From: Thermoprotei archaeon
Lineage (GTDB): Archaea > Thermoproteota > Thermoprotei > Thermoproteales > B15-G16
Reading direction: 5' to 3'
Assembly: GCA_003649205.1 (NCBI GenBank)
Contig: QMRC01000007.1
Coordinates: 21,937 to 85,936 of the forward strand
DNA length: 64,000 nucleotides
A program made the position numbers and the translations under genes. This document shows positions 22,498 through 37,050 of the stretch, one piece after another; positions within the stretch are counted from its first letter, which is position 1; each line of letters starts with the position of its first letter. Below the pieces are notes generated by a model that ran no database searches, was not told the origin of the DNA, and was given only the letters and a program-made list of their open reading frames with translations.

Positions 22498-23937
22498 GTG
22501 ATTTCAGACTTTAATCCAATGAACTTGGTAAGAAGCTTAGGGTATGTAATGAGCACTGACCTCTTCTTCGATCTCTTCGTCAAGGAGGTTGAGGAGAAGC
22601 TCACTAATGGGAATTCAGGTACTGAATTCACTATGAAGCCGAAGATACCTACCATTCTCTTCAACGAGATCAAGAAGCTATGGGTAAGCGAACTCCCCAA
22701 GAGAACAACTAACTGCTCCATAGTAGCTGTTGATGGTGGTATAAGGTCACTAGGTCTAGAAGGTGGTAGAGAGGTAGTTATAACGAGGGCTATAGCAGTA
22801 ACTAGTTCAGGTGCTAGAGCAAGACAATTAAGAGTTGAGTTAAGTAAGCTACAGGGTTTTGCTCTAAAGCTCTCACTACTTACGCAGGTAGAGTGCTCTG
22901 TTGCTCTTGAAGCTCTAGAGAAGGTACCTAATGTGGATTACTTACTTCTCGATGGTTCACTATACTATAGAGTAGTCCATGCACTTCACAGAATTCTTAG
23001 ACCTAGGGAGATAGCAGATACTTACTACCTACCTGAGCTAATCATGACCGTGACCTACGTAGCTACCTTACTCAAGCGATGTCGCGAGCTCAACGTAGTG
23101 CCGCTATTCATAACGAAGGACTCATCATCACGAATGTTGAAGGACTACGTAATCAGCAACATAATCTACGAGCAGCTGTACGAGAACAAGCTCCTTACAG
23201 ACCTAGAGGACATCACCACGGAACTACTTTTAAAAGCACGAAACCTGTACTCAGTTACCTGGGTAAAACACTACAGAGCAAATCTCGAAAAACTTCAACA
23301 ACACCTAAGAGCGGCACCTACGAATGTAGCGGAAGAACTTATACACTGTATTGAGCTATGGCTTCAACCGCACATCACAGACGTAGACTTAATTCGCTCA
23401 ACAGTAACCACTATAGGTTTCTCAAGACCGCTCAACATAGGTCTCATAGATATCCACTTAGATAACTTACTACAGGTACTTGAGAGGAGTAAGAAGAGAG
23501 TACTTGACAGGATCAGTGATGCACTCAAGATGAGAATCAATGAGGTACTAGGTAATGAGAGTTACTGGTACACCCTACTGATGAATGCTCTCAAGACAAT
23601 ACCAACTCTCTACATGACGTACATACGTGTGACACCAGACGATACACCACTAGCAATTGAGATACCTAACTTCAGATCCAGTATGGGATTCGTAGAGTTC
23701 CGAAGTAGGAGATTAAGTAGTGAACTCGAGATACTAGATCCACTTAGTATAGTTGTCAGTGGTTACAGGAATTCAACAGTCTACAATGTATGGCTCTACT
23801 TAGCACATCAGTACGCAACCTTCAGATCAACTCAGTTCAGAAGCTACGTAAAGTACCTCGAAGCACATCTCTCAAAGTATGGTCTTATCCTTCGAAAGAA
23901 GAGAAGAGAGAAGATGGTGGTGGCTCCTCTTGAGTGA
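22498..23937 (+). CDS. nurA: DNA double-strand break repair nuclease NurA
   Basis: VAVDGG, conserved E helix, LLLDGSL, ITKDSSSR, TD, Y..WLYLAH; adjacent to herA/mre11/rad50. Confidence 0.88.
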   Translation: MISDFNPMNLVRSLGYVMSTDLFFDLFVKEVEEKLTNGNSGTEFTMKPKIPTILFNEIKKLWVSELPKRTTNCSIVAVDGGIRSLGLEGGREVVITRAIAVTSSGARARQLRVELSKLQGFALKLSLLTQVECSVALEALEKVPNVDYLLLDGSLYYRVVHALHRILRPREIADTYYLPELIMTVTYVATLLKRCRELNVVPLFITKDSSSRMLKDYVISNIIYEQLYENKLLTDLEDITTELLLKARNLYSVTWVKHYRANLEKLQQHLRAAPTNVAEELIHCIELWLQPHITDVDLIRSTVTTIGFSRPLNIGLIDIHLDNLLQVLERSKKRVLDRISDALKMRINEVLGNESYWYTLLMNALKTIPTLYMTYIRVTPDDTPLAIEIPNFRSSMGFVEFRSRRLSSELEILDPLSIVVSGYRNSTVYNVWLYLAHQYATFRSTQFRSYVKYLEAHLSKYGLILRKKRREKMVVAPLE

Positions 23938-25963
23938 GGAGGTTGGTTATGTAGTTGGTGAGGTCACTCCCCTAGAATTTACCTTCGCTGTAAACCCCAA
24001 GACACCAGTACCTCTCTACGAGTATGTGTACTGTGAGCTAGAGGATGTACCACCTGGTGAGACCAAGCTCCATAGAGTAAAGGTCATAGCACAGGTACAT
24101 GAGGTGTATCGTGTTGGTGTTGGTCTTGGCAAGAATGTACCCTATGATGTGGCTAAGAACTTAGCAGCTAGCGGTGTTGAGGTTGAGGAGATTCACCTAG
24201 CTAAGGCTAGGGTACTTGGGTATGTGTGGAGAGGTAGATTGGTAACTCCGAGGAGACCACCGAGAGCGAATACTAAGGTCTTTAGAGCACCAACTGAGCT
24301 AGTTAAGGAGCTTTACAGCGTTCCAGAGGATAGAGCACTTCACATAGGGTACCTTGTTGCTAGACCTGAAGTACCTGTCTACCTAGATGTTGAGGGCTTG
24401 AAGAGGCACTTAGCGATAATAGCAGCTACAGGTAGTGGGAAGACTTGGTGCGCAGTGTTATTGATTGAAGAGCTGTTGAAGAAGGGTGCCACGATAGTTG
24501 TCATAGATCCTCATGGTGAGTACGTTAAGTTGAAGGAGAAGGTTCACGTCCTAGATCCCAGACTTAGGGATAGAGTTCTTGTACTTAAAGCTTCACGAAC
24601 GCAGGAAGGTGATAAGCTCTATAGAATAAAGCTCCTTCAACTAGATTCAGAAACTCTCTCAAGTATAGCGGGTATACCACAGAATGCTCACAAGATAAGA
24701 CACTGTGTGAGAGCAGCATTCAACATAGTTAAGGCAATTGCTAAGTACGTGAATAGGCCTGAGCTAGTTAACATAGGTAACTTGTTGAAGGTGCTTAGTT
24801 TCTGGAGGAGAGAACGAAATGTATCAAAGTCGAGGAAGTCAGGTAACCTATCTCCTGAACCTATAGTTAGGAAGATGCTTCAGGAATTATTTAATCTAGG
24901 TAATTCAGATAGTGAGTTAGTTAGGAAGCTCAGTAAGTACATTGAGGATCTGTACGCAGCAACGTACCGTGATGTATCACCTTGTCTTGATGCTATCAGG
25001 TACCTAAGGTCACTTAAGAGGTATGGGGTCTACACCTCAACAACTACACCACTACACGAAATTCTTCAACCAGCTCACGTAACGATACTGAACCTCAGTG
25101 GTGTTAAGGAGGAAATACAGGACCACATCGTCTACAATGTCCTAACCAGGATATTCAATGCTAGAGTCAGGTACGTCAGAGACCTACCTGGTGAAAGGTA
25201 TGAGTACCCTGTTGTCGTCTTCATTGAGGAAGCACATAGATTCGCACCACCTAAACACCGTAGTAGAAGAACTTGGAGTCAAGAGATAATCACGAGGATT
25301 GCTTCTGAAGGTAGGAAGTTCGGTGTCTACTTAGTGGTCATAACTCAGAGACCATCGAAGATAGACTCAGATGTGCTGTCTCAATGTCAGAATCAGATCG
25401 TCCTCAAGATAGTTAATCCGAAAGATCAAGAAGCTATTAAGGATGCTAGTGAAGTGCTCTCACAGGACTTACTCATGAACTTACCTAGCCTCAACACCGG
25501 TGAAGCTATTGTTGTTGGTCCATTAACTAAAGCACCCGTAATAGTCAGGTTGAGGGATCGTATATTACCCTACGGTGGTTCAGATATCGTGGTTAGTGAG
25601 GTATGGAGTAGAGCATTGACCTCAGTACTTCCAGATACCTCAAGTGAAGTACATGTACTTAGGAAGCTAGGTATCAACGTTGATCAAGGTACATTGAGGA
25701 AGGTAATGCCCTACCTACCGTATGTCACGTACGAGATTGATCCACTAACATTGACTATCCTCGGTAAGGTAAGTCTTGGACGTGAAGCGTATGTCGAGTA
25801 TAGACTCGGTGAAGGTACATGGTACTGTTCAGCATGTAGACATAGCATTCAACCATGTGTACACGTACTAGCACTCCTGCTAAAAGTTATAGCTTCTAAG
25901 GATATAAAATTACTTGAGAGAGAAGTGGTGCAGAACAATGGTAACGATAGCACACCTAGCTGA
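23930..25963 (+). CDS. herA: HerA DNA translocase with C-terminal SWIM-like zinc finger
   Basis: HAS barrel (VGYVVG), RHLAIIAATGSGKT, DPHGEY, EEAHRF, EGRKFG, TQRPS, SQCQNQ, GEAIV; tail WYCSAC....PCVH. Probable TTG start at 23930 after GGTGG (ORF track starts 23879). Confidence 0.92.
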   Translation: MSEEVGYVVGEVTPLEFTFAVNPKTPVPLYEYVYCELEDVPPGETKLHRVKVIAQVHEVYRVGVGLGKNVPYDVAKNLAASGVEVEEIHLAKARVLGYVWRGRLVTPRRPPRANTKVFRAPTELVKELYSVPEDRALHIGYLVARPEVPVYLDVEGLKRHLAIIAATGSGKTWCAVLLIEELLKKGATIVVIDPHGEYVKLKEKVHVLDPRLRDRVLVLKASRTQEGDKLYRIKLLQLDSETLSSIAGIPQNAHKIRHCVRAAFNIVKAIAKYVNRPELVNIGNLLKVLSFWRRERNVSKSRKSGNLSPEPIVRKMLQELFNLGNSDSELVRKLSKYIEDLYAATYRDVSPCLDAIRYLRSLKRYGVYTSTTTPLHEILQPAHVTILNLSGVKEEIQDHIVYNVLTRIFNARVRYVRDLPGERYEYPVVVFIEEAHRFAPPKHRSRRTWSQEIITRIASEGRKFGVYLVVITQRPSKIDSDVLSQCQNQIVLKIVNPKDQEAIKDASEVLSQDLLMNLPSLNTGEAIVVGPLTKAPVIVRLRDRILPYGGSDIVVSEVWSRALTSVLPDTSSEVHVLRKLGINVDQGTLRKVMPYLPYVTYEIDPLTLTILGKVSLGREAYVEYRLGEGTWYCSACRHSIQPCVHVLALLLKVIASKDIKLLEREVVQNNGNDSTPS

Positions 25964-27266
25964 TGCGCATCTAGGCTTTAGACAGTATGGGCTACCTGAA
26001 AGAGCTAGTGACTTCGCTAAATCATTCCACAGGGCAGTCGATGAGATAGTGGAGAGGAGAGCTGACATAGACCTAGTACTGATAGTTGGTGATCTATTCC
26101 ACAGCAAGAGACCTAGTCCAGAGACAATTCGTGAAGCTGTTATTGGTCTTAAGAAGCTCAGAGAAGCGAATATACCGGTCATAGTGACAAGAGGCAATCA
26201 CGACGCGCCATACTCGCAAGGCAGCAACAATGTGTTGACTCTCCTCTCTGAGCTAGGTTTAGTCAAGTACATAGATTATGGAAGAGTAGAGATTAGTGGG
26301 ATCGAAATCATAGCATGTGGTTGTACACCAACAGCGTATACAAGAGCACTAGAGAACTACTTGAGACAAGTAGTTAGCTTAGAGAAGGGACAACGTATCC
26401 TCCTACTTCACCAGGTTATTGAGGGTATAGAGCAAAATTACCCAAATGACCCGTATGTAGTACCATTAGATGTAGTTAAGGAATTTGCTACGAAATTCAA
26501 CTACATAGCTCTAGGTCATGTACATACCTTCGCACTGAAGCACCCTCAATTACCTGCATACTACTCCGGATCACTAGATATCTGGGATATCTCTGAATTC
26601 GAGACATACATCATGAAGTCTAGCAAGACCTTAGTTAAGGAACGTGACATGAGTGAGAAGGGTTTCCTCATAGTTCATGTAGATGGTGGAATTGAGGTAG
26701 AGAGAGTAAGACTTAGACCTAGTAGGAGGATGATTAGAGCAGTTCTCGCTTACAGTAATGAGGTGAAGCCTAGTGAAGTAATGAGGGATCTTATATCGGT
26801 AGCTCACGAGCTAGATAGGGAAGATGCTGTTGTTGTGATCGAGTTGCTAGGTAATCTAGTACCTGGTTCGAGTAGGCATGAGCTAAATTTGAAGGAGGTG
26901 AGGAAGTACTTTAGAAGAGTTCTCAAACTCGATATCAGGAATAGGCTGGGTGTAGTTACGTCGACTACAGATGGTAAAGTAGTAGACATATCGTCACTGA
27001 GTTTAGAGTCGCTTCTCAGGAGTTCATTCCTGAAATACTTCAGCAACGTAGCTAAGTCAATTGCTCTAGATCCTCAGTTCCTAAGTGAGTTAGCTATGAA
27101 ATTGCTCGATCTCCTAGCTCAAGGTAAGACTAGAGAAGCCCTCTACGTATTGTATAGAGAGTTGGGTGTTGATACAGGTACTGTATCGATTCCGAGTATC
27201 AGTACCTCTACTTCAGCTCCCTCTAGAAGGGGTAGGGAATCCACGATATTAGATTGGTTGAGGTGA
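25938..27266 (+). CDS. mre11: Mre11 nuclease
   Basis: DAHLG, GDLFH, GNHD, LHQ, LGHVH, YSGS; probable ATG at 25938. Confidence 0.93.
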   Translation: MVTIAHLADAHLGFRQYGLPERASDFAKSFHRAVDEIVERRADIDLVLIVGDLFHSKRPSPETIREAVIGLKKLREANIPVIVTRGNHDAPYSQGSNNVLTLLSELGLVKYIDYGRVEISGIEIIACGCTPTAYTRALENYLRQVVSLEKGQRILLLHQVIEGIEQNYPNDPYVVPLDVVKEFATKFNYIALGHVHTFALKHPQLPAYYSGSLDIWDISEFETYIMKSSKTLVKERDMSEKGFLIVHVDGGIEVERVRLRPSRRMIRAVLAYSNEVKPSEVMRDLISVAHELDREDAVVVIELLGNLVPGSSRHELNLKEVRKYFRRVLKLDIRNRLGVVTSTTDGKVVDISSLSLESLLRSSFLKYFSNVAKSIALDPQFLSELAMKLLDLLAQGKTREALYVLYRELGVDTGTVSIPSISTSTSAPSRRGRESTILDWLR

Positions 27267-27276
27267 GGGACTTACC

Positions 27277-29697
27277 TTGATCATTAGGTTAGAGGTAGAG
27301 AACTGGAGGTCCTACATAAGGGCCAGTGCTACGTTTACTGAAGGAATAACGTTTGTACATGGTGTTAATGGTGCTGGTAAGACATCTCTCCTAGAAGCTA
27401 TAGCATATGCTCTCTACGGTTCTAGGTGGTTAAGGTTAGCGAGGAGGGAAGGTGAGGAGAGGTTAAGTGATCTCCAGAGGAGGGGTTCCAGTATTACTAA
27501 GGTTAGGTTGTGGTTTAGAGCACCTAGTGGTGAGGTGTATGTTGTTCAGAGGTGTATCGTGGGTGGTAGATCTCAACGAGATAGTACGTACCTAATGGAT
27601 TCTAGAGGTAGGAGATTAGCTATTGGTGATGAGGAGGTTACTGAAGCTATTGAGAGGATAACTGGTATATCCTGTAGGGCGTTTAGGGAACTCCTCTACG
27701 TTAGGCAGGGTGAGCTGAAGGATATTCTAAAGGAGAGACGGAGAGAGAAGCTGGATGAGCTACTTAGGATCAAGGATCTGGAGAAGGCTAAGGACTCTAT
27801 GAGGGATGTTATCTCGAAGCTAGATACAGCACTTAGGTTAACGATCCAGGAACTAAGTCAGGTAGAGCACCTCATTCGTGAGTACGAGAATAGGGTTCTA
27901 GATATCTCTAAGAAGATGGATGGGTTAGTTAAGTTGATTGAGGAGTATAGGACTAGAGTTAGTTCCATTGAGAGTAGACTTGAGGAGATGAAGAAACGTG
28001 AGGAGGAGTTGAGGAGTTATCGTGAGAGGATTCAGAATCTAAGACTCGAGGTAGCTAACTTAAGGACTGTTAGGGAGAGGTACATTTCTGAGATAAGGGT
28101 TCTAGAGGGTGAGCTTCAACGGGTTAAGGAGTTAAGGGATGAAGTTGAGAGGTTAGCTCGAGAATTGCAGAGAGCATCTGAACTTGAGCAGAGATTACGT
28201 AGCTTGAGAGAACAGGAGAAGCAATTGCTCAATCTCCTCGGTGAGTACACGTACCTACTCAACCAAGTTAAGGAGTATGAAAAGCTGCTTAGTGAGGTCA
28301 ATAGGCTTAGAGATGAGTATGAGAAGTGCAGTCAGGAGCTTAGATTGCTAGAGAGTGAGAGGAGTAAGCTACTTCAACAACTCTCATTAATTAGGAAGTT
28401 TGAGGAGGAGTATAGTGAACTACTTAAGCGTAGAGCTCAGCTAGAGCAGGAACTGAGTATTCTACGTAATTTTGTAGATAATTTGGAGGGATCTAGGGTA
28501 GCTACGTGCCCTCTCTGTGAAAGAGAGATTAGTAGTGAGTACAGGGAATTGATTCTAAAGAGAAAGAGGAAGAGAATTGAGGAGTTGAAGAATACTCTAA
28601 CTGACTTATCTAAGCGTATTCAGGAGATTGAGCAGTCACTTAAGCAACGAGATGAGCTTCTCTCTAGACTACTGAATGTCGAGCAGTGTATAGCTAGTGC
28701 TCGATCTAGGTTGCAGGAACTGGAGAGTAAGCTACGTGAGCTAAGTGATCTACAGAAGCAGGTACAGAGTATGTATGAGAAGATTAAGACTCTTGAGGGT
28801 AAGTTAAGTGAGTTAGAGAGAATTCGAGATGACATAACTCAGCTAGAGCGTGAAGCTGGTAGAGTACAGGAACTGAGAGAGAGATTGAGTTCTTTAATGC
28901 AGGAGCTATCTAGGGAGCGTGTACTCGAGCAGAAAATAGCGGAGCTAAGGGAGAGGGTAAGTGAGGTTACGGAACTAATTGAGTGTAAAGAACGTGAGGT
29001 TAAGTCTCTACTCACTAAATTCAATGAGGAGGAGTACACTAACTTACAGAGTAGTATTCAGCATCTTGAGGAGGAGCTTGTGAGGTCTAAATCAGAGCTA
29101 AGTAGGCTAGAGGGTGAACTAAAGTCCTACCATGAACAACTATCCGAAGCCAAGAGGAAGTTAAGTGAACTCGAGAAGAGACGAGAAGAGTTAATCAGGA
29201 AGAGGCAGAACCTCGAGCGGGTACTCGCAGTAGCCTCTCTGATAAGGAGGTCGTACGACGAGATCAAGCCAATGCTTAGGTCATTGGTCATCGAAGCAAT
29301 AAACATGGAAGCAGAGAACCTGTTCAATCAACTTAAACACAAGAAAAACTATGAGAGTATCGAGATATCACCTGATTACGAGGTGTATATACGTGATAGA
29401 TCAGGTGCTAAGTACCTTATCGACTACTGTTCTGAAGGTGAGAAGACACTCATAGCACTGGTCCTCAGATATGCACTAGCAAAGGTACTCATAGGTGAAA
29501 CACCCATATTAATTCTTGACGAACCAACAGAACACCTAGATAGAGAGCATAGAGCAAGACTCATCAGGTGGTTAAGCACCTGTGAGTGGGCTAGACAACT
29601 AATAGTGACATCTCACATAGATGAGTTCAGTCAAGTAGCAAACAACGTAGTGGAGGTAAGAGTAAGAGAAGACGGCGTATCAGAGGTAATTCAGTGA
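27277..29697 (+). CDS. rad50: Rad50 ATPase
   Basis: GVNGAGKTS, YVRQGE Q-loop, long coiled coils, CPLC zinc hook, signature CSEGEK, LDEPTEHLD, TSH. Confidence 0.93.
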   Translation: MIIRLEVENWRSYIRASATFTEGITFVHGVNGAGKTSLLEAIAYALYGSRWLRLARREGEERLSDLQRRGSSITKVRLWFRAPSGEVYVVQRCIVGGRSQRDSTYLMDSRGRRLAIGDEEVTEAIERITGISCRAFRELLYVRQGELKDILKERRREKLDELLRIKDLEKAKDSMRDVISKLDTALRLTIQELSQVEHLIREYENRVLDISKKMDGLVKLIEEYRTRVSSIESRLEEMKKREEELRSYRERIQNLRLEVANLRTVRERYISEIRVLEGELQRVKELRDEVERLARELQRASELEQRLRSLREQEKQLLNLLGEYTYLLNQVKEYEKLLSEVNRLRDEYEKCSQELRLLESERSKLLQQLSLIRKFEEEYSELLKRRAQLEQELSILRNFVDNLEGSRVATCPLCEREISSEYRELILKRKRKRIEELKNTLTDLSKRIQEIEQSLKQRDELLSRLLNVEQCIASARSRLQELESKLRELSDLQKQVQSMYEKIKTLEGKLSELERIRDDITQLEREAGRVQELRERLSSLMQELSRERVLEQKIAELRERVSEVTELIECKEREVKSLLTKFNEEEYTNLQSSIQHLEEELVRSKSELSRLEGELKSYHEQLSEAKRKLSELEKRREELIRKRQNLERVLAVASLIRRSYDEIKPMLRSLVIEAINMEAENLFNQLKHKKNYESIEISPDYEVYIRDRSGAKYLIDYCSEGEKTLIALVLRYALAKVLIGETPILILDEPTEHLDREHRARLIRWLSTCEWARQLIVTSHIDEFSQVANNVVEVRVREDGVSEVIQ

Positions 29698-29721: not shown

Positions 29722-30519
29722 GTGCAATTCTGCACATTGAAAGAGCAACAACTCAACAGGTTAAGTACCTCTACTCCAACTCCTTCTCCGGGAACACTCA
29801 TGGGTAAGGTAGTGGTTATTAAGGAGAAGAGCGAGAGCATACCATCGATATTCTTGAAGTCAGTAGTGGGTGTAGTCTGCTTCGTACTATTACTCACGAT
29901 ATCACCAGTGCTAGCAATGCTATCTCTCGGCTCAGCCGCTACCTTCATAGCTTTGAAAAAGATAGTAGGTAGAAAGAGGAAAAGAGAAGATACAGTACCT
30001 GAAGACGAAGATACAGAAGCGCTGAAACTCAACACAAAGAGGAGTAGGGCATTTCACTCAGTAATCAGGCTGAAGCCAGTGAACTTAAGTAAGCTACATA
30101 GACTAGACATGAAGGTGACACTCCTCGTACTTGATCCCAAAGCAAACTACATACTGGTACCTAGAGGACTAGAGTTAACCTGTATAGCACTCATGAAAGT
30201 ACAGACACAGCAACCGCTTGACAGGGATACTATAGCGAAGATCTGCCTCAGTACAGATTGTGAAGTCGAGCCCTCCGAAGTAGTAACACTAGATCACGTA
30301 GGTAATAGCAAGATACCGCTCACACACTACGTACTGGTAGTTAGGTCTAGGAAGGTAACACCAGTAGTGACATCAAACACCGTAGCTGAGTTAATTAGCA
30401 GAGTTAGTCTCGCAATCTCAACACTAACCTCAACAATCATGAGTAGAGACCCCCAAGCAGTGATCGAAGTTCTACCAGCTAGTAGAGTTATTGAGGAACA
30501 GCTACTGATGAGGTGGTGA
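29722..30519 (+). CDS. Hypothetical membrane-anchored protein
   Basis: Hydrophobic hairpin (SIFLKSVVGVVCFVLLLTISPVLAMLSLGSAATFIAL) followed by KKIVGRKRKR; probable ATG at 29800. Confidence 0.7.
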   Translation: MQFCTLKEQQLNRLSTSTPTPSPGTLMGKVVVIKEKSESIPSIFLKSVVGVVCFVLLLTISPVLAMLSLGSAATFIALKKIVGRKRKREDTVPEDEDTEALKLNTKRSRAFHSVIRLKPVNLSKLHRLDMKVTLLVLDPKANYILVPRGLELTCIALMKVQTQQPLDRDTIAKICLSTDCEVEPSEVVTLDHVGNSKIPLTHYVLVVRSRKVTPVVTSNTVAELISRVSLAISTLTSTIMSRDPQAVIEVLPASRVIEEQLLMRW

Positions 30520-30520
30520 C

Positions 30521-31849
30521 ATGAGGATCACCATAGGTTACGAAATTCAGGGTAACGTAGCAGTACGTGAAGCAATGCTAGATCTTAGAGGTGGAGACGT
30601 AATCGGTATCTTCGGTAAGTGTGGTAGTACTACAGTCAAGCAGTTAATCACATCACTTAGTGATCTGTCAGAGGAAATAACCTCCACAGTGATTCTAGAT
30701 AGTGAAGGTACTCTCCGAAACCTCAAAGCACTAAACGAGTACAGGTACACAGTTCTTGGATGGAATGCATCACTACCTCTAATAGAAGTAATTCCCCCAG
30801 GAAAAGACCTCTCATCTAGACTCCTCATGGTAACTGACATCATTGCAGCAGCACTGAATCTCAGCGATATCGAGGCACACATACTTCACAACGCACTCAT
30901 GAAGTACCTAACAAGCAGTAGTCACGAGCTAGATAACCTAATGAAAGCTCTCTCGGAAGAGTACATGAAGTTAAGTCCTGTAGAGAGAACGAGAGCATAC
31001 AACATACTCTCACTAATGAGGGACCTAAAGTACGGTAGACTAGGAGCTACTTTCTCTGAACTACACCACACAGTAAATTTAGAAGAGAGTATGCTCTACG
31101 TAGATACAGCACTAATACCTCCAAGCTACAGACCTCTCATACTATCACTCCTGATGTACTACCTGTATAGTAGAGGTGCTAGGGGTAAGATCATAGTGAT
31201 ACTGAACTTCGGCACTTACCTAAGTGATGTATCGATGAGATCAAAGAGCTTCAGTACCCTACTCACTACGTTACTGATAAACAACGTGACGGTAATACAT
31301 TCAAACTCAATACTAGAGCTCCCTACGTACTTAAGAGAATACATCACATACATAATCCAGCACAGGGTAAACACAAGTACTGAAGCAAGAGCTCTAGCAG
31401 ATTTCTACAAGCTACCTGAAGAAACATTAACGAAGTTGAGAGATCACGAAGCATACCTAGTCGGTAGAGGTCTATGCCTCAAGATTGCGCTATGGCATGA
31501 CATAGTTGAGGAGTTACCTACCTCTAGGTTACCCAGAGAATTACTTACACCCCGTGAACCAGCAGCCCAACCACTGATAAGGGAGGTATTCGGTGATAGA
31601 GCAGAGCTAGTGTACGAGGTACTGAACTACCTAAGGAGAGGTGCAGTTACTAGAGATGAGCTACTCTCCTTCCTAACTGAAGGTATGGGTCTCGATACCA
31701 CATCAGCGGCCAAGCTAATCAATGAGCTATGTGTTCACGGTCTTGTAGAGGACTTCATTGCGAGAGATGGTAGGTACTGGATTAGGCTCTCCATTAGGGG
31801 TCTTGTCTCTGTTGATGAGTATGAGGAGTGGAGAGCAAGAGAGACGTAG
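30521..31849 (+). CDS. Degenerate HerA/FtsK/VirB4-like P-loop protein with C-terminal winged-helix-like domain
   Basis: IGIFGKCGST (eroded Walker A), ILDSEG (cf. DPHGE), IIQHRV, LTKLRDHEAYLV; C-terminal VTRDELL...LINELCVHGLV...RLSIRG. Confidence 0.6.
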   Translation: MRITIGYEIQGNVAVREAMLDLRGGDVIGIFGKCGSTTVKQLITSLSDLSEEITSTVILDSEGTLRNLKALNEYRYTVLGWNASLPLIEVIPPGKDLSSRLLMVTDIIAAALNLSDIEAHILHNALMKYLTSSSHELDNLMKALSEEYMKLSPVERTRAYNILSLMRDLKYGRLGATFSELHHTVNLEESMLYVDTALIPPSYRPLILSLLMYYLYSRGARGKIIVILNFGTYLSDVSMRSKSFSTLLTTLLINNVTVIHSNSILELPTYLREYITYIIQHRVNTSTEARALADFYKLPEETLTKLRDHEAYLVGRGLCLKIALWHDIVEELPTSRLPRELLTPREPAAQPLIREVFGDRAELVYEVLNYLRRGAVTRDELLSFLTEGMGLDTTSAAKLINELCVHGLVEDFIARDGRYWIRLSIRGLVSVDEYEEWRARET

Positions 31850-32283
31850 TGGAGGTGATTTTGATGAATATTAGATGGGACTCTAGTGGACTAGGATTTA
31901 CATGGACTATAGGTATTGTAGGTACAGGTATCCTACGTGGTAGGGTAAGGAGGGTCAGTACTAGGAATGGCGTACGAATAGTGCGGTCAGTGTACCTTGT
32001 ACCAAAGAGGTCGTTAAGAGATGATGCTGGTGAGGAATTACTTACAGAGTGGTATGAACCGCAGGAATTCAGTAAGCTAGTCGACGCAGAACTCAAGTTG
32101 CTCTCCATAGTGCTTGAAGAAAGAAGTAGATCAGGCGACCCTGTTCAGGAGATTAAGCTCGCACTTGCTGACTTGGAGAAGCTCCTCAATCAAGTTGCCC
32201 TCCTTAAAGCTAGATTGGAGAAGTTATTGGAGGTGGTGAGTTATGGGAGGAAGGAGGAGAACTCAAACCACAACTCAAACTAG
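31828..32283 (+). CDS. Hypothetical protein (basic beta-rich N-terminus, C-terminal coiled coil)
   Basis: Overlaps both neighbours; GGAGGTGA RBS-like sequence at ~31851-31858. Confidence 0.7.
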   Translation: MESKRDVVEVILMNIRWDSSGLGFTWTIGIVGTGILRGRVRRVSTRNGVRIVRSVYLVPKRSLRDDAGEELLTEWYEPQEFSKLVDAELKLLSIVLEERSRSGDPVQEIKLALADLEKLLNQVALLKARLEKLLEVVSYGRKEENSNHNSN

Positions 32284-33286
32284 CTCACAGGTTCAGCAGG
32301 TAAGTGAACAGAGATCTGGAGTACAGGAGCTTAAGGTAGTCAGGATACCAATCGAGGAGTTACCTAACACGACGAGAGCTACCATAGAGAAGTTGAAGAG
32401 TGCAGGTATCTACAGCGTTCAGCATCTCTCAATGTTTACGGTAGATGAGCTAGTTATGTACGATGTGACGCCGGAGACAGCAGCTAGGTTACTGAGAAAA
32501 GCAAGAGCACTACTCAAGAGTGAACCACGAGTATTCTCACTCAAGGAGTTCTCAAACTACAAGAGTTCACTACCTAGAGTGAGGATTCACGTAAATGCTA
32601 TAGACAACATGTTGGGAGGAGGTCTAGAACCTAGAGCTATCTACGAATTTGCTGGTGAATTCGGTGCTGGCAAGACACAGCTTTGTCATCAACTAGCTGT
32701 CACAGTTCAACTAAGCTACGATAGAGGTGGCGTAGCAGGAGCGGCGCTGTACATAGATACTGAAGGTACCTTTACACCCTCTAGAATAAAGTCAATAGCA
32801 GAGAGATTTGGGCTAGATCTCGACTACGTATTCTCAAACATCTACGTAACACAACCGAAGACTGTTGACGATTTACTTGAGTGTATTAGGACAGATGTCG
32901 TTAGGTACGTAGAGGACCACAACGTCAAGCTAATAATAGTTGACTCATTAATAGGTCTCTTCAGAGCTGAGTACCCTGGAAGGGAGAATCTAGCTCTAAG
33001 ACAGCAGAGACTGAACTACGCTCTAGACTGGCTCTCGAGAGTAGCCAAGACCTACAACATCTTCGTAGTGATCACGAATCAGGTAATGGATGTACCAATG
33101 GGATTTGGTTCACAGAAACCAGCTGGTGGAAACATCATGGCACATGGTGCAACACATAGATTCCTACTATACAAAGTCGGTAGGGAATCAGGTCTAAGAG
33201 CAATGGAAGTGCTTGACTCACCAGCACTACCTGAGGGACTTACTGTCAAGTTCAGAATAACTGAAAGAGGGTTAGAGGATGTCTAG
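32243..33286 (+). CDS. radA: DNA repair and recombination protein RadA
   Basis: N-terminal HhH, GEFGAGKTQLCHQL, YIDTEGTF, IVDS, FRAEYPGRENLA.RQQ, TNQV, GGNIMAH, DSP.LPE. Confidence 0.9.
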   Translation: MGGRRRTQTTTQTSSQVQQVSEQRSGVQELKVVRIPIEELPNTTRATIEKLKSAGIYSVQHLSMFTVDELVMYDVTPETAARLLRKARALLKSEPRVFSLKEFSNYKSSLPRVRIHVNAIDNMLGGGLEPRAIYEFAGEFGAGKTQLCHQLAVTVQLSYDRGGVAGAALYIDTEGTFTPSRIKSIAERFGLDLDYVFSNIYVTQPKTVDDLLECIRTDVVRYVEDHNVKLIIVDSLIGLFRAEYPGRENLALRQQRLNYALDWLSRVAKTYNIFVVITNQVMDVPMGFGSQKPAGGNIMAHGATHRFLLYKVGRESGLRAMEVLDSPALPEGLTVKFRITERGLEDV

Positions 33287-33620
33287 AGTAGACATACCAC
33301 CAAAGATACTGCAGAAGTTCAGAGAGATGTTTCCGAATAAGAGTACATCGTGGATAAGGAGGTGCATAGCGAGATTACCAGATGTCGTTGAGGGTAAGGT
33401 AAGAGGTGTCTGGTTTGTTCGTGGTAATGCTAAGCTTGGTGATGCGTATTCACAGTACATAGTGAAGTACATTGCTGGTAAGTACATGTGTAGCTGTATG
33501 GAGAGAGAAAGACCGTACCACAGTAGGAGAAGAAAGGAGCTGTGCACACATGTTGGTGCGGTAATCCTGTATAGGTTACTGAAGGGTGAGACTATATGCG
33601 AGACAGAGGTCTCATCCTGA
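33279..33620 (+). CDS. SWIM zinc-finger protein
   Basis: W.V.G...Y.V...YMCSC-x15-CTH.GAV. Confidence 0.85.
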   Translation: MSRVDIPPKILQKFREMFPNKSTSWIRRCIARLPDVVEGKVRGVWFVRGNAKLGDAYSQYIVKYIAGKYMCSCMERERPYHSRRRKELCTHVGAVILYRLLKGETICETEVSS

Positions 33621-34087
33621 TCTACGGTAATCCAAAGAGGATACTGAAGAAGCTAGTAACAGCACTACAGAGAGAATCTGCACTACTGTTAACCGATAGC
33701 GAGAACTATGCAGCAGTACCATATGAGGAAAGCGATCTCAAGATAGCTATTGTCGATGTATTAGAGCATGTACCTGAGGTACTGAGTAAGGAAGCTAGAA
33801 AGGTAAACGTAGTGTGCACACCATCAATACTCAGCAAGGTTGTTAGAGAGTTCTACAGCTACGTAAGGAGTTCACCTAGTGGAAGTTACCTAGGAATATA
33901 CTACGTCAAGCTACTTAGAGAGGTTCTCGAAAGAATTCGAGCAATAACGTACTCGAGAAGGTTACTCACAATTGTCGTAGCACCTTCACGAATAAATCCA
34001 GTAACAGGTCAGGAGTACCCTGTACTACATTGGTTAGTTCAGAGGTACTTCGATGAGGTACTTCATGAACAACACGTGATGGTGTGA
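33596..34087 (+). CDS. Small RecA-fold (RadB-like) protein lacking the P-loop GKT
   Basis: GLILIYG, LLTDSEN (cf. YIDTE), VVCTPSI (cf. IVDS), helix then LLTIVVAP (cf. VVITNQ), EYPV (cf. KPAGG). Confidence 0.6.
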   Translation: MRDRGLILIYGNPKRILKKLVTALQRESALLLTDSENYAAVPYEESDLKIAIVDVLEHVPEVLSKEARKVNVVCTPSILSKVVREFYSYVRSSPSGSYLGIYYVKLLREVLERIRAITYSRRLLTIVVAPSRINPVTGQEYPVLHWLVQRYFDEVLHEQHVMV

Positions 34088-34088
34088 G

Positions 34089-34586
34089 GTGATTGATCTG
34101 TCTAAGGCGGGGAAGAACAACACAGTCGACATATACATATGTCCAATATGTGGTAAGACTTTCAGCAAGGAAAGCAGTTTAGCGCATCACATAACTAGAG
34201 CACATGGAACATACAAGCTAATTGTTGATGCAGGTAAATTCATCACTAGATTAGAGAAGGTTGAGAGAACACTCGCTAGAGTAGAGAGAGCAGTATCTCA
34301 ACTACTTGAGCAAATTAAAACCCTAAATGGTAAGCTTGAGGAAGTCTCAACATCGATATCCGAGCTACAGAAGCAATTACAGGAGGTACCTCAGATAACG
34401 GTCATGGCTCCTAAAGTAACACTTGTAACTCAAGAAGCTAAGGCACTGAAGACCGAATTAGCTACATCAATCAAGAGACTTGACCTACATAGCGCAGACA
34501 CCATAGAGATACCAGACTACATCCTGGACAATCCATGGTTAAAAGTTCTCCAGCAAAAACCAAGAGAAGGCAACTTAAATTCCTAA
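34089..34586 (+). CDS. C2H2 zinc-finger / coiled-coil protein
   Basis: YICPICGKTFSKESSLAHHITRAH, heptad region, C-terminal IPDYILDNPWL. Confidence 0.8.
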   Translation: MIDLSKAGKNNTVDIYICPICGKTFSKESSLAHHITRAHGTYKLIVDAGKFITRLEKVERTLARVERAVSQLLEQIKTLNGKLEEVSTSISELQKQLQEVPQITVMAPKVTLVTQEAKALKTELATSIKRLDLHSADTIEIPDYILDNPWLKVLQQKPREGNLNS

Positions 34587-34604
34587 ATTTTGAACAATAT
34601 CTCT

Positions 34605-36779
34605 TTACGAGTATAGAAACGTAAGTGATGCCAGCACTAGATATACGAGCTGTGAAGCTACTAGTCCAATACCAATCATGTAAAGGATCACTGACAATGT
34701 CAACCTTACACTACGTGACTCCTGATATATCACAGCTATTGTTGGTAGACAAGGTACGTAAAGCGTGAAGAAAACCAGAAACGCCATCAAGCTAGGTAGA
34801 GTGAAGCCAAGTGCTCTCAATGCTTCATCAATACTCACTCCACCATATAGTAATGACGTAGCCTCCAAGAAGGCCTCCTTCGCTATAAATCCATGAAGTA
34901 GTGCAAAACCTACCTTCCACGCTTTTTCAGCGTCAAGACCATACAGCACAGAAATTACTGGAGCTAGTAGCTTCCCAAGTAATGCACCATAGGTCTTCTC
35001 AATACCTACACCATACCCCTCTGGACCATAGCTCAGCAACATCCACGTGACGATACTCAAGCCAACTATTATGATACCTGCCTTCCTTAGGAAGTGCTTA
35101 CTGTAATCCCAAGTCAACCACCACAGTACCTTACCTGAAGGTCTGTGAATTGGAGGTAGCTCAATAACCAGTTCCGGTGGCTCCTTCCTACGGTACACGA
35201 CTCTCCTAGTGAGAATTGATGTGAGGAGTGCTACAAGGAAGGATATGGCGTAGAGCGATAGAAGTGCAAGTGCTTGCCCTAGTGGGTTCTTAATGTATGT
35301 AGTGACAAATGCTAAGATAACAACTAACCTTGCTTGACAAGGAATGAATGGTACAGAAACTATCAATTGCCTCCTCTCCTCTTCCTCAAGTGCTGTCCTA
35401 GATGCCAGTACAGCAGGTAGGTTACATCCGAGACCTATCATGAATGGGTAAATAGCTCTACCACTTAACCCAAATCTACTGAAGAAGTTGTGGAATGAGA
35501 TAGCGAAGCGTGGTGCTAATCCACTATCCTCTAGCGTAGCTATGAGTAGAGAGATCAACATTATCAGTGGCAGGAATGAGAGAATAGCACCAACACCTGG
35601 AATAACACCATCAACTATTAACGACGTCACTTGTGGTCCAAGACACGTCTTGAGAAGTGGTTCAAGAAGTGTACTTAGGTACGTAAATCCTAGACCAAGC
35701 AATCCCGATATGCTGTACTCCTCAATTAACTCAGCTAATTCACTAAACCCTAAGTAGCTAAGAAGTACATTGAATGGAAATCCCGTATTCACAGCAAATA
35801 TCAGAGAGAACAGTATGAGAAGGGATATGAAACTGACTACAGGACCCATCAGTGGGTGCTGAATTAACCTATCGAGAAGCGCAGTAGCTAACTCAGTTAG
35901 GCTAAGTTCCTCGTACCTACGTGCTTTCTTCTCAACACGAACAACGACATCGCCTAGGAGAGAGTCTATGAACTTGAATCTCTGAGCTACAAATAACTCC
36001 ATTAACTCTCTACCATAGGTTCTAGCTAATGACTCGCGAATCCTCCTAACTCCATGAACTACCTCATCTTCACCAAGTAACTCAAGCTCCTTCTCCAGCT
36101 CTGGATCACCTTCGAGAAGTCTAATAGCCAACCACCTAAGAGGGTACTTCCTGGAGAGAGCTGACTTAGACAGTACCCTCTCCACATCGGATATAGTAGA
36201 CTCAAGAAAAGACCCATAGTTAACCCTAATAGGCTCTCTCCTACACCTCCTACCCTCGGCAACATCAATTATCGCATCGAGTAATTCTCTCAAGCCATAT
36301 CCCTTAATAGCGGATACAGGAACTACAGGAACAGAGAGCTTACTTTCAAGTCTATCTACGTGGATGTGAATGCCTAAACTATGTGTGAGGTCTGATTTCG
36401 TCAACGCAATGACGACTTTAGGCGTTAACTCAAGTACCTGAATAGCTAGGTACATTGTCCTCTCTACAGCTGTTGAATCAACGAGCACCAAAACGAGATC
36501 AGGTTTCTCCTCCACGATGTACTTCCTAGCAATAACCTCTTCAGTGGTGGAAGCTGATAAACCGTAGATACCGGGTAGATCAACAAATCGAATAATCTTG
36601 CCCTTATATTCACGAACTCCCTCCTTTCTCTCAACGGTTGTTCCAGGCCAATTAGCTACATGAGATATCTCACCAGTGAGTACGTTAAATAGCGTTGACT
36701 TACCAACATTTGGCTGCCCAATAACGCCAACAACTATCTCACGTTCTCTTCCACTGTTCTTACCCGTGGTAACCACCAT
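34605..36779 (-). CDS. feoB: Ferrous iron transporter FeoB
   Basis: GQPNVGKST, NWPGTTV, DLPG, LEDSG, GLGCN, IPCQAR, YVPC; probable ATG at 36779. Confidence 0.95.
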   Translation of the reverse strand: MVVTTGKNSGREREIVVGVIGQPNVGKSTLFNVLTGEISHVANWPGTTVERKEGVREYKGKIIRFVDLPGIYGLSASTTEEVIARKYIVEEKPDLVLVLVDSTAVERTMYLAIQVLELTPKVVIALTKSDLTHSLGIHIHVDRLESKLSVPVVPVSAIKGYGLRELLDAIIDVAEGRRCRREPIRVNYGSFLESTISDVERVLSKSALSRKYPLRWLAIRLLEGDPELEKELELLGEDEVVHGVRRIRESLARTYGRELMELFVAQRFKFIDSLLGDVVVRVEKKARRYEELSLTELATALLDRLIQHPLMGPVVSFISLLILFSLIFAVNTGFPFNVLLSYLGFSELAELIEEYSISGLLGLGFTYLSTLLEPLLKTCLGPQVTSLIVDGVIPGVGAILSFLPLIMLISLLIATLEDSGLAPRFAISFHNFFSRFGLSGRAIYPFMIGLGCNLPAVLASRTALEEEERRQLIVSVPFIPCQARLVVILAFVTTYIKNPLGQALALLSLYAISFLVALLTSILTRRVVYRRKEPPELVIELPPIHRPSGKVLWWLTWDYSKHFLRKAGIIIVGLSIVTWMLLSYGPEGYGVGIEKTYGALLGKLLAPVISVLYGLDAEKAWKVGFALLHGFIAKEAFLEATSLLYGGVSIDEALRALGFTLPSLMAFLVFFTLYVPCLPTIAVIYQESRSVRLTLSVILYMIGIGLVASQLVYLVLASLTFLYS

Positions 36780-36816
36780 GAGTTTGACATATACAACATT
36801 TAATAAACATTTCCAC

Positions 36817-37050
36817 TTACTTGAGCACTTCAACCAGAATCTTCTTAGCAATACCCCTACTCAGGGCAATCTCAACACCTCTAACCTCAATCACGAGAGG
36901 TCCCCTACCACTATTGTCAAGAACCTTAACCTCACTACCAGGTACCAACCCCATCTGCATAAGTCTTCTATTAATTCCGTAACCTACATCGAGAGCAATG
37001 ACCCTACATCGAGTACCTGGAGGTACCATATCTAAAGCAGTTGTAGTCAT
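36817..37050 (-). CDS. feoA: FeoA protein
   Basis: RRLMQMGLVPG, GPLVIEVRG, IALSRGIA. Confidence 0.93.
   Translation of the reverse strand: MTTTALDMVPPGTRCRVIALDVGYGINRRLMQMGLVPGSEVKVLDNSGRGPLVIEVRGVEIALSRGIAKKILVEVLK

Follow-up and report, generated by a model that had tools for sequence, protein, structure and literature searches.

A conserved archaeal operon couples a second RadA paralogue to a SWIM zinc-finger protein and a probable RadB-like protein

The subject of this analysis is a cluster of co-directional genes in a Thermoprotei archaeon of the order Thermoproteales (assembly GCA_003649205.1, contig QMRC01000007.1, positions 21,937 to 85,936 of the forward strand); this whole stretch of 64,000 nucleotides is referred to as the window, and its first letter is position 1 for all window coordinates. 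The cluster encodes, in succession, a Rad51-family protein (RadA2), a 113-amino-acid protein with a SWIM-type zinc-finger motif and a 163-amino-acid protein (p163). An earlier note on this DNA, made from the sequence alone, had proposed that the SWIM protein and p163 form a prokaryotic counterpart of the eukaryotic Shu complex, encoded as a gene pair directly behind radA. The open reading frames (ORFs) were exactly as that note had described them, with a CSC-x15-CTH protein overlapping the genes on both sides and a 163-amino-acid ORF lacking GKT. The radA2 and SWIM genes overlap by 8 nucleotides, the SWIM and p163 genes by 25 nucleotides, and a gene encoding a C2H2 zinc-finger protein begins 1 nucleotide past p163; from rad50 onward, the genes form a co-directional array with intergenic gaps of no more than 24 nucleotides (Table 1). 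These window genes are the tail of a conserved archaeal operon of six or seven genes. The unit is thus larger than the proposed pair and includes a HerA-like protein with a winged-helix (wHTH) domain and two further proteins. The operon is conserved in at least ten archaeal families.

To describe the operon, 20 loci were fetched from nine families, and the 18 loci with a called SWIM ORF served as the denominator. The order of the genes was a protein of ~200 amino acids, the HerA-like/wHTH protein (family K2), a protein of ~115 amino acids (family K4), RadA2, SWIM and a fast-evolving protein in the position held by p163 in the window, which we refer to as the slot protein. RadA2 was encoded immediately upstream of SWIM in 17 of the 18 loci, a K2 family gene preceded SWIM by two or three genes in 17/18, and a K4 family gene was called between K2 and RadA2 in 15/18. 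A same-strand gene of 130-207 amino acids was located −55 to +24 nucleotides from the SWIM stop codon in 16 loci. One of the two remaining loci ends ~1 kb past SWIM, and the other (L104:7705-8502, + strand) carries one 265-amino-acid ORF consisting of SWIM and a part resembling the slot protein, which may have arisen by fusion in nature or from a frameshift in a single draft assembly. The operon usually started with the ~200-amino-acid protein, belonging to family K6 or K14, and a gene encoding an ArsR/MarR-type regulator was often divergent from its start. Flanking genes of the operon were stable within a family; in f31, f32 and f40 they belonged to the same neighbour families. The K2 profile (16 members) matched HerA-like chains in the PDB (8yho, E 1.3e-5; 8xau, E 0.011) as well as the PadR-like wHTH chain 4ejo (E 0.0048); no Pfam family was matched by the three K2 members checked, and the K2 match to the CedD model was weak (E 0.0049, far under the 600-bit cut-off). 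The K4 proteins were ~93-161 amino acids long where a full ORF was called (67 amino acids in L114), and their profile matched coiled-coil designs only in the PDB; K4, K6 and K14 had no match among the Pfam families. The PADLOC search revealed no defence-system family for the operon proteins, giving generic coiled-coil or P-loop matches only. Homologues of the C2H2 protein of the window (family K30, 121-122 amino acids) are encoded after the slot protein in a single class-level relative, at each of its two SWIM loci, and the gene recurred nowhere else.

The window Rad51-family gene is a second RadA paralogue and not, as had been assumed previously, the principal radA of the genome. Three Rad51-family matches were identified in the genome, scoring 324.6 bits (the main RadA, on another contig), 220.3 bits (the window) and 88.9 bits (a third contig). 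RadA2 passed the cut-offs of PF08423 (219.4 bits, cut-off 22) and NF003301 (299.1 bits, cut-off 259) and remained under that of TIGR02236 (277.7 bits, cut-off 361). It was 44% identical to the main RadA of the same genome and 52-56% identical to the second RadA copies of a sister family. The Walker A (GEFGAGKT) and Walker B (LIIVDS) motifs were intact, Walker A being kept in 21/21 proteins of the RadA2 group, and the match to HHH_5 was weak (E 0.023). The ratio of nonsynonymous to synonymous substitution rates (dN/dS) against the sister species was 0.03. The FxxA-type linker polymerisation motif, read by eye, is FMTA in the main RadA, FSLK in the window RadA2 and [V/I/M]xxA in other RadA2 proteins, a sequence change that suggests altered filament contacts. 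In the RadA trees, rooted at the midpoint, the main RadAs nested within the SWIM-linked group, and no claim of RadA2 monophyly is therefore made. The third Rad51-family gene of the genome, on contig 16 (L031:7827-10213), encodes a very divergent RadA paralogue of 387 amino acids. A second short SWIM gene (152 amino acids, opposite strand) lies 765 nucleotides from it, and HerA-like genes and a 1225-amino-acid ORF were found in the surroundings.

Of the 301 genomes and 123 genera of the phylum covered by a profile search, 65 and 26, respectively, contained the SWIM family. Outside the order, the SWIM protein had a short form like that of the window and occurred as one copy in 40 of the 43 positive genomes. 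Synteny outside the order was checked in the 28 genomes with strong SWIM matches, 20 of which had a Rad51-family match immediately preceding SWIM on the same strand. The proposal of a Shu-like gene pair held in part: SWIM is closely and widely linked to RecA-family genes, and the slot protein is RadB/RecA-like in other lineages, but the conserved partner of SWIM is RadA2 (17/18 loci; 20/28 genomes). Within the order, 30 of 41 genomes were matched, with a total of 48 matches and up to six per genome, and the protein usually had a long form of ~190 amino acids with an extra C-terminal domain. Twenty-two of these 48 matches were found no more than 10 kb from a Rad51-family gene, belonging to other paralogue clades, while the chance expectation is a few percent, given two to seven Rad51-family genes per ~2-Mb genome; genome relatedness inflates any formal test of this proximity. 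The Rad51-family genes near SWIM in the order mostly belonged to a separate paralogue clade, in which 13 of 22 members had a SWIM gene within 6 kb. A search for longer fused SWIM forms (465-2000 amino acids) found none, which is weak evidence.

Some variants of the SWIM family showed a different arrangement. In one genus of the order, the long form was multi-copy (L028:4562-10850 and, with a similar layout, L077-L080) and was clustered with a VirB4/HerA-like ATPase of 660 amino acids, an AAA ATPase of 303 amino acids, a protein of ~145 amino acids and a divergent RadA paralogue; these clusters may represent mobile-element-borne variants. The 145-amino-acid protein encoded after the long-form SWIM in one genus (F7) had Atlas features that weakly (0.76-0.77) resembled PIN/FEN-like nucleases and not RecA. 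One genome of family f4 (G231) had 11 SWIM-family matches, several with internal stop codons and none adjoining a Rad51-family gene, which looks like amplification and decay.

The p163 gene is preceded by a GGGTGA Shine-Dalgarno-like motif directly 5' of its ATG, and its dN/dS against the sister species was 0.16. This value indicates a genuine coding gene under purifying selection, evolving quickly in comparison to RadA2 (0.03) and SWIM (0.05). The protein lacks GxxxxGK[ST], the aligned position being LILIYGNPKRILKK, and at E≤1 it matched neither a Pfam nor an NCBIfam family. Its homologues were confined to the genus in searches of 41 relatives' genomes, of a 5.8-billion-protein index and, with HMMER, of 1.84 billion representatives; the sole other match, a repetitive bacterial surface protein, was judged spurious. 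The possibility that p163 is the frameshifted C-terminal domain of a ~190-amino-acid SWIM protein was also rejected, since tblastn with 19 long forms against positions 33000-35000 returned nothing past the SWIM domain. The ESM Atlas contains the exact p163 sequence, with a model of predicted template modelling score (pTM) 0.77 and predicted local distance difference test score (pLDDT) 0.72. Ten structural neighbours were listed for this model, with template modelling scores (TM) of 0.68-0.78 by query over residues 1-163, and seven of the ten were RecA_N/Rad51/RadB/AAA_24 clusters, the top one (TM 0.78) belonging to the RadB family. By language-model features, the nearest cluster was annotated as ‘putative recombinase RecA’ (0.89, under the 0.9 line). 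The comparison of p163 with the RadB-like slot profile by hhalign gave a weak match, consistent in register, over the helix-strand-loop-strand segment at the p163 C-terminus (29% probability, score 29.5), and this score was reached by none of the 60 column-shuffled controls (maximum 24.3). In the extended alignment, LILIYGNPK of p163 falls on the Walker A strand of the slot protein of locus L112.

The slot proteins of other lineages provided a wider basis for this comparison. The L112 protein (L112:8034-8657, + strand) has an intact Walker A (GEAGAGKT), a Walker B-like MVVVD and a match to the RadB family TIGR02237 (E 1.5e-13). Matches to the same family were obtained for the slot proteins of L099 (E 4e-4) and L105 (E 0.071), all these scores being far under the 172-bit equivalog cut-off. 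In three families (the L112, L099 and L105 groups), the slot proteins aligned with the RadA2 core at 79-95% hhalign probability. Walker A was present in one of the 17 slot proteins checked, that of L112, which has the look of a ‘missing link’ connecting RadB with the slot proteins that have no P-loop. A common ‘hhhhhG ... helix plus hydrophobic strand’ layout was seen by eye in the joint alignment of all slot proteins. Owing to the Atlas fold, the RecA-like equivalents in the same slot elsewhere and the match to the RadB-like slot profile, p163 is read as a degenerate RadB-like protein and is quite probably a RecA-fold derivative. The RecA/RadB likeness claimed for p163 in the earlier note found support in the Atlas neighbours and the weak slot-profile match, while family models, RadA-family profiles and a structure predicted from its own small alignment gave it no backing.

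The motif residues of the window SWIM protein are C71-S-C73 and C89-T-H91, separated by a 15-residue spacer, and C71, C73, C89 and H91 were invariant in 19 relatives within the order and in 21 relatives from 12 families. The window protein did not match the Pfam SWIM family PF04434 at E≤1; 14 of the 19 aligned relatives matched it at E≤0.1, with a top score of 19.5 bits against a cut-off of 19.6. The alanine of the CxHxxA motif, as in Shu2/SWS1, is present in the window (CTHVGA), and the dN/dS of the protein against the sister species was 0.05. A model of high confidence was obtained with AlphaFold2 (AF2) from the 19-sequence alignment (pLDDT 86.4, pTM 0.79). Foldseek found nothing at E≤0.001 with this model. 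When 48,161 chains were scanned exhaustively with VIA, rank 1 was the SWIM region of ZSWIM8 (Z 5.8, root mean square deviation (rmsd) 3.5, 89 residues) and the next rows had Z≤3.5; the Shu2 chain 6dex_B of the Shu1:Shu2 complex was ranked third (Z 3.4, rmsd 5.2, 93 residues). In a repeat VIA check, ZSWIM8 alone exceeded Z 2.3. By motif and modelled fold, the 113-amino-acid protein is a SWIM domain, and it is a candidate member of the Shu2/SWS1 subfamily.

By analogy with the Shu complex, it is moderately probable that RadA2, the SWIM protein and the RadB-like protein constitute an accessory or mediator complex for the main RadA. The gene linkage makes RadA2 the firm partner of SWIM, and p163 would be a probable third, P-loop-less member. 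In such a complex, RadA2, the SWIM protein and the RadB-like slot protein would assemble as a hetero-oligomer in which the zinc-bound SWIM domain might bridge active and inactive RecA-fold subunits, and the complex could aid the main RadA on single-stranded DNA by filament nucleation, capping or stabilisation. In the genus of the window, where the operon is joined to nurA-herA-mre11-rad50, it might act directly after end resection, with K2 and K4 as possible targeting or regulatory factors. The prediction of a SWIM and p163 complex gave ipSAE 0.00 in two runs, which were made without controls and count neither for nor against binding.

Several observations weigh against a Shu-like mediator. 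All eight exceptions to the synteny outside the order came from family f4, in which SWIM was found beside a Rad51-family gene in 0/8 genomes, and the orthology of RadA2 across families was not settled by the RadA tree. SWIM was multi-copy in some genomes (six and 11 matches, some with stop codons) and stood beside VirB4/HerA-like ATPases, suggesting mobile-element variants. The alanine position of CxHxxA was occupied by alanine in 16 of 21 relatives and by serine in five; the SWIM model was nearer to ZSWIM8 than to Shu2; and the sequence profile of the SWIM family, searched against the PDB at E≤10, recovered no Shu2/SWS1 or other SWIM chain and gave two chance matches. The RecA fold of p163 depends on a single ESMFold-based source. 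The AF2 model from a two-sequence alignment was unusable (pLDDT 40.6), and the comparison with RadA families by hhalign was null (0.1-0.7% probability). The slot groups K23, K24, L096, L097 and the C-terminus of L104 had no significant profile similarity to RecA or to each other, and the comparison was equally null for the slot protein of L098, a second-copy locus with neither RadA2 nor K2. The Foldseek and VIA matches to the low-scoring p163 model were unrelated or confined to a helix hairpin and were discarded. The hhalign comparison of p163 with 35 neighbour-gene families, including RadA, did not exceed 1.3% probability.

Beyond analogy, the operon could be the archaeal ancestor and true homologue of the eukaryotic Shu/SWS1-SWSAP1 complexes, so that the pairing of SWIM with an ATPase-dead RAD51 paralogue would have been inherited by eukaryotes, and K2 and K4 would be further parts of an ancient mediator machine; we consider this ancestry doubtful. 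Another explanation is that the module works in DNA transfer or for a mobile element and not in chromosomal repair, with RadA2, SWIM and their partners processing incoming or element DNA as accessories either of Ted/Ced-type import or of integrated conjugative elements. The long-form SWIM of the order, with up to six matches per genome and frequent clustering with VirB4/HerA-like ATPases and a separate RadA paralogue clade, is in line with it, as are the f4 genome with 11 matches, several bearing internal stops, and the HerA-like nature of K2. The Ted DNA-import loci of Thermoproteales co-localise with HerA-like and Rad50 genes (PMC9905601). Outside the order, however, 40 of the 43 positive genomes have one copy of the operon, and this together with its stable flanks within f31, f32 and f40 argues against such a role for the short form. 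In the window, the operon trails the best herA and rad50 matches of the genome; no PADLOC family was matched, and no integrase or pilin gene was noticed among the operon neighbours, for which no systematic search was made. We regard a transfer or mobile-element role of the module as unlikely.

A comparably low probability is given to the explanation that p163 is not a RecA-family protein at all, the slot holding unrelated genes, each specific to its lineage, and functional coupling being limited to RadA2 and SWIM. The restriction of p163 to its own genus with no Pfam or NCBIfam match, the null comparisons with RadA-family profiles, the five slot groups lacking significant RecA similarity and the low confidence of the AF2 model favour it; moreover, three-layer alpha/beta folds are common, and a TM of ~0.7 is therefore not unique to RecA. 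It is opposed by the seven of ten Atlas rows assigned to RecA, Rad51, RadB or AAA_24 over residues 1-163, by the slot-profile score of 29.5 against a shuffle maximum of 24.3, by the position of LILIYGNPK on the L112 Walker A strand and by the layout that slot proteins share, by eye, in the joint alignment. That SWIM is a zinc finger which binds nucleic acid or has a regulatory role for the operon, rather than a structural partner of RecA-fold proteins, would fit the many unrelated contexts in which Makarova, Aravind and Koonin reportedly placed SWIM domains in 2002, the ubiquitin-ligase adaptor ZSWIM8 as the nearest solved fold to the model and the divergent ArsR/MarR-type regulator gene flanking many operon loci, yet it is highly improbable in view of the translational coupling of SWIM to RecA-fold genes on both sides, the SWIM-slot fusion ORF of L104 and the linkage of SWIM to at least three separate RadA paralogue groups.

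Upstream of the operon, the window contains the end-resection genes nurA, herA, mre11 and rad50 (Table 1). HerA and Rad50 of the window are the best matches to those families in the whole genome, while all four proteins were far under the NCBIfam equivalog cut-offs (e.g., 233 versus 970 bits for HerA). Additional HerA-like, NurA and Rad50-like copies were observed elsewhere in the genome. The nurA-herA-mre11-rad50 adjacency is specific to the genus of the window and was found in none of the 20 loci fetched from other families. The first protein of the operon array, p265, matched no Pfam or NCBIfam family and corresponds to the K6/K14 proteins of other lineages (~200-230 amino acids) by position alone, with no BLAST link. 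The array is closed by a convergent 748-amino-acid ORF (34605-36851, − strand), 18 nucleotides from the zinc-finger gene, which has an N-terminal GTPase motif and many transmembrane segments and is FeoB-like by eye. The synonymous divergence (dS) against the sister species (L009) climbs along positions 31828-34586, from 0.09 in the K4 gene to 0.66 in the zinc-finger gene, which may reflect a recombination boundary or a mutation-rate gradient.

Table 1. Upstream repair genes and operon array of the window, with positions counted from its first letter.
Gene product	Position	Strand	Features
NurA		+	ORF 22498-23937; PF09376 match at 22717-23817, 38.8 bits
HerA	24026-25963	+	ORF; PF01935, 127 bits
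Mre11-like protein	25914-27266	+	ORF; NF041029, 143 bits
Rad50	27277-29697	+	ORF; NF003034, 250 bits; zinc hook present
p265 (265 amino acids)	29722-30519	+	ORF with hydrophobic segment; opens the operon array
K2 protein (442 amino acids)	30521-31849	+	HerA/FtsK-like core without conserved Walker A; C-terminal winged-helix domain
K4 protein (151 amino acids)	31828-32283	+	Helical C-terminus; no Pfam family
RadA2 (347 amino acids)	32243-33286	+	PF08423, NF003301; N-terminal helix-hairpin-helix (HhH)-type region
SWIM zinc-finger protein (113 amino acids)	33279-33620	+	CSC-x15-CTHVGA
p163 (163 amino acids)	33596-34087	+	Probable P-loop-less RadB/RecA-fold protein in the slot after SWIM
C2H2 zinc-finger and coiled-coil protein (165 amino acids)	34089-34586	+	zf-C2H2, 28.6 bits; final gene of the array

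Complexes of RAD51 paralogues with SWIM proteins are treated as eukaryotic recombination mediators. The literature, searched in full text, revealed no account of an archaeal operon of SWIM and a RadA paralogue; an earlier mention is possible, as the introduction of one paper describes Shu2 orthologues as conserved ‘from archaea to humans’ (PMC5727457). Those families of the phylum with the heaviest sampling yielded no match to the SWIM family (0/43, 0/25, 0/18 and 0/17 genomes), which may explain the absence of a published account. The operon places SWIM between an active RadA paralogue and a decaying RadB-like protein and gives context to four unannotated protein families, i.e., K2, K4, K6/K14 and the slot proteins. 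As a simple and thermostable system, it would lend itself to studies of how SWIM proteins organise RecA-fold subunits, and it would permit a direct test of whether the Shu principle is older than eukaryotes.

Among known systems, RadB is a euryarchaeal recombination mediator. The slot proteins resemble it in being short (~200 amino acids) and reduced to the RecA core, and those of L112 and L099 match TIGR02237; they differ from it in that most of them, including p163, have no Walker A and that they are always encoded after SWIM and RadA2. The crenarchaeal RadA paralogues (aRadC/RadC, Ral and Rad55-like proteins) are extra RecA-family genes in Thermoproteota and are thought to modulate RadA. 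They are not known to have an N-terminal HhH domain or a SWIM partner. RadA2 is likewise an extra protein beside the main RadA but, unlike these paralogues, is full length. The Ted/Ced systems share with the window an arrangement in which HerA-like and Rad50 genes co-localise with accessory genes particular to a lineage, and both belong to the same order of archaea (PMC9905601). In the window array, by contrast, neither a VirB4 gene nor a pilin or channel gene of the TedA/B/C type was identified, and neither RadA nor SWIM is named in the paper on these loci (PMC9905601).

The operon also resembles the Shu complex, which assists Rad51 (PMC5727457, PMC6316741), and this likeness may stem from homology or from convergence. 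The archaeal set differs in having a full-length, Walker-positive RadA2 with an N-terminal domain, the HerA-like/wHTH protein and two more proteins. With respect to Shu2, the structural match was weak (Z 3.4) and no sequence-profile match was obtained, and the spacer of the motif is 59 residues in Shu2 (PMC5727457) versus 15 in the archaeal SWIM protein. In the descriptions of the eukaryotic proteins, Shu1 is a four-stranded mini-RecA core (PMC5727457), SWSAP1 is closest to archaeal RadA, and Shu2/SWS1 carries the motif CxC...CxHxxA with an invariant alanine (PMC6316741). In both systems, a small SWIM protein with CxC...CxH, followed here by xxA, is paired with RecA-fold paralogues, at least one of which has no ATPase motifs, and Shu2 (6dex_B) was ranked third among 48,161 chains for the archaeal SWIM model.

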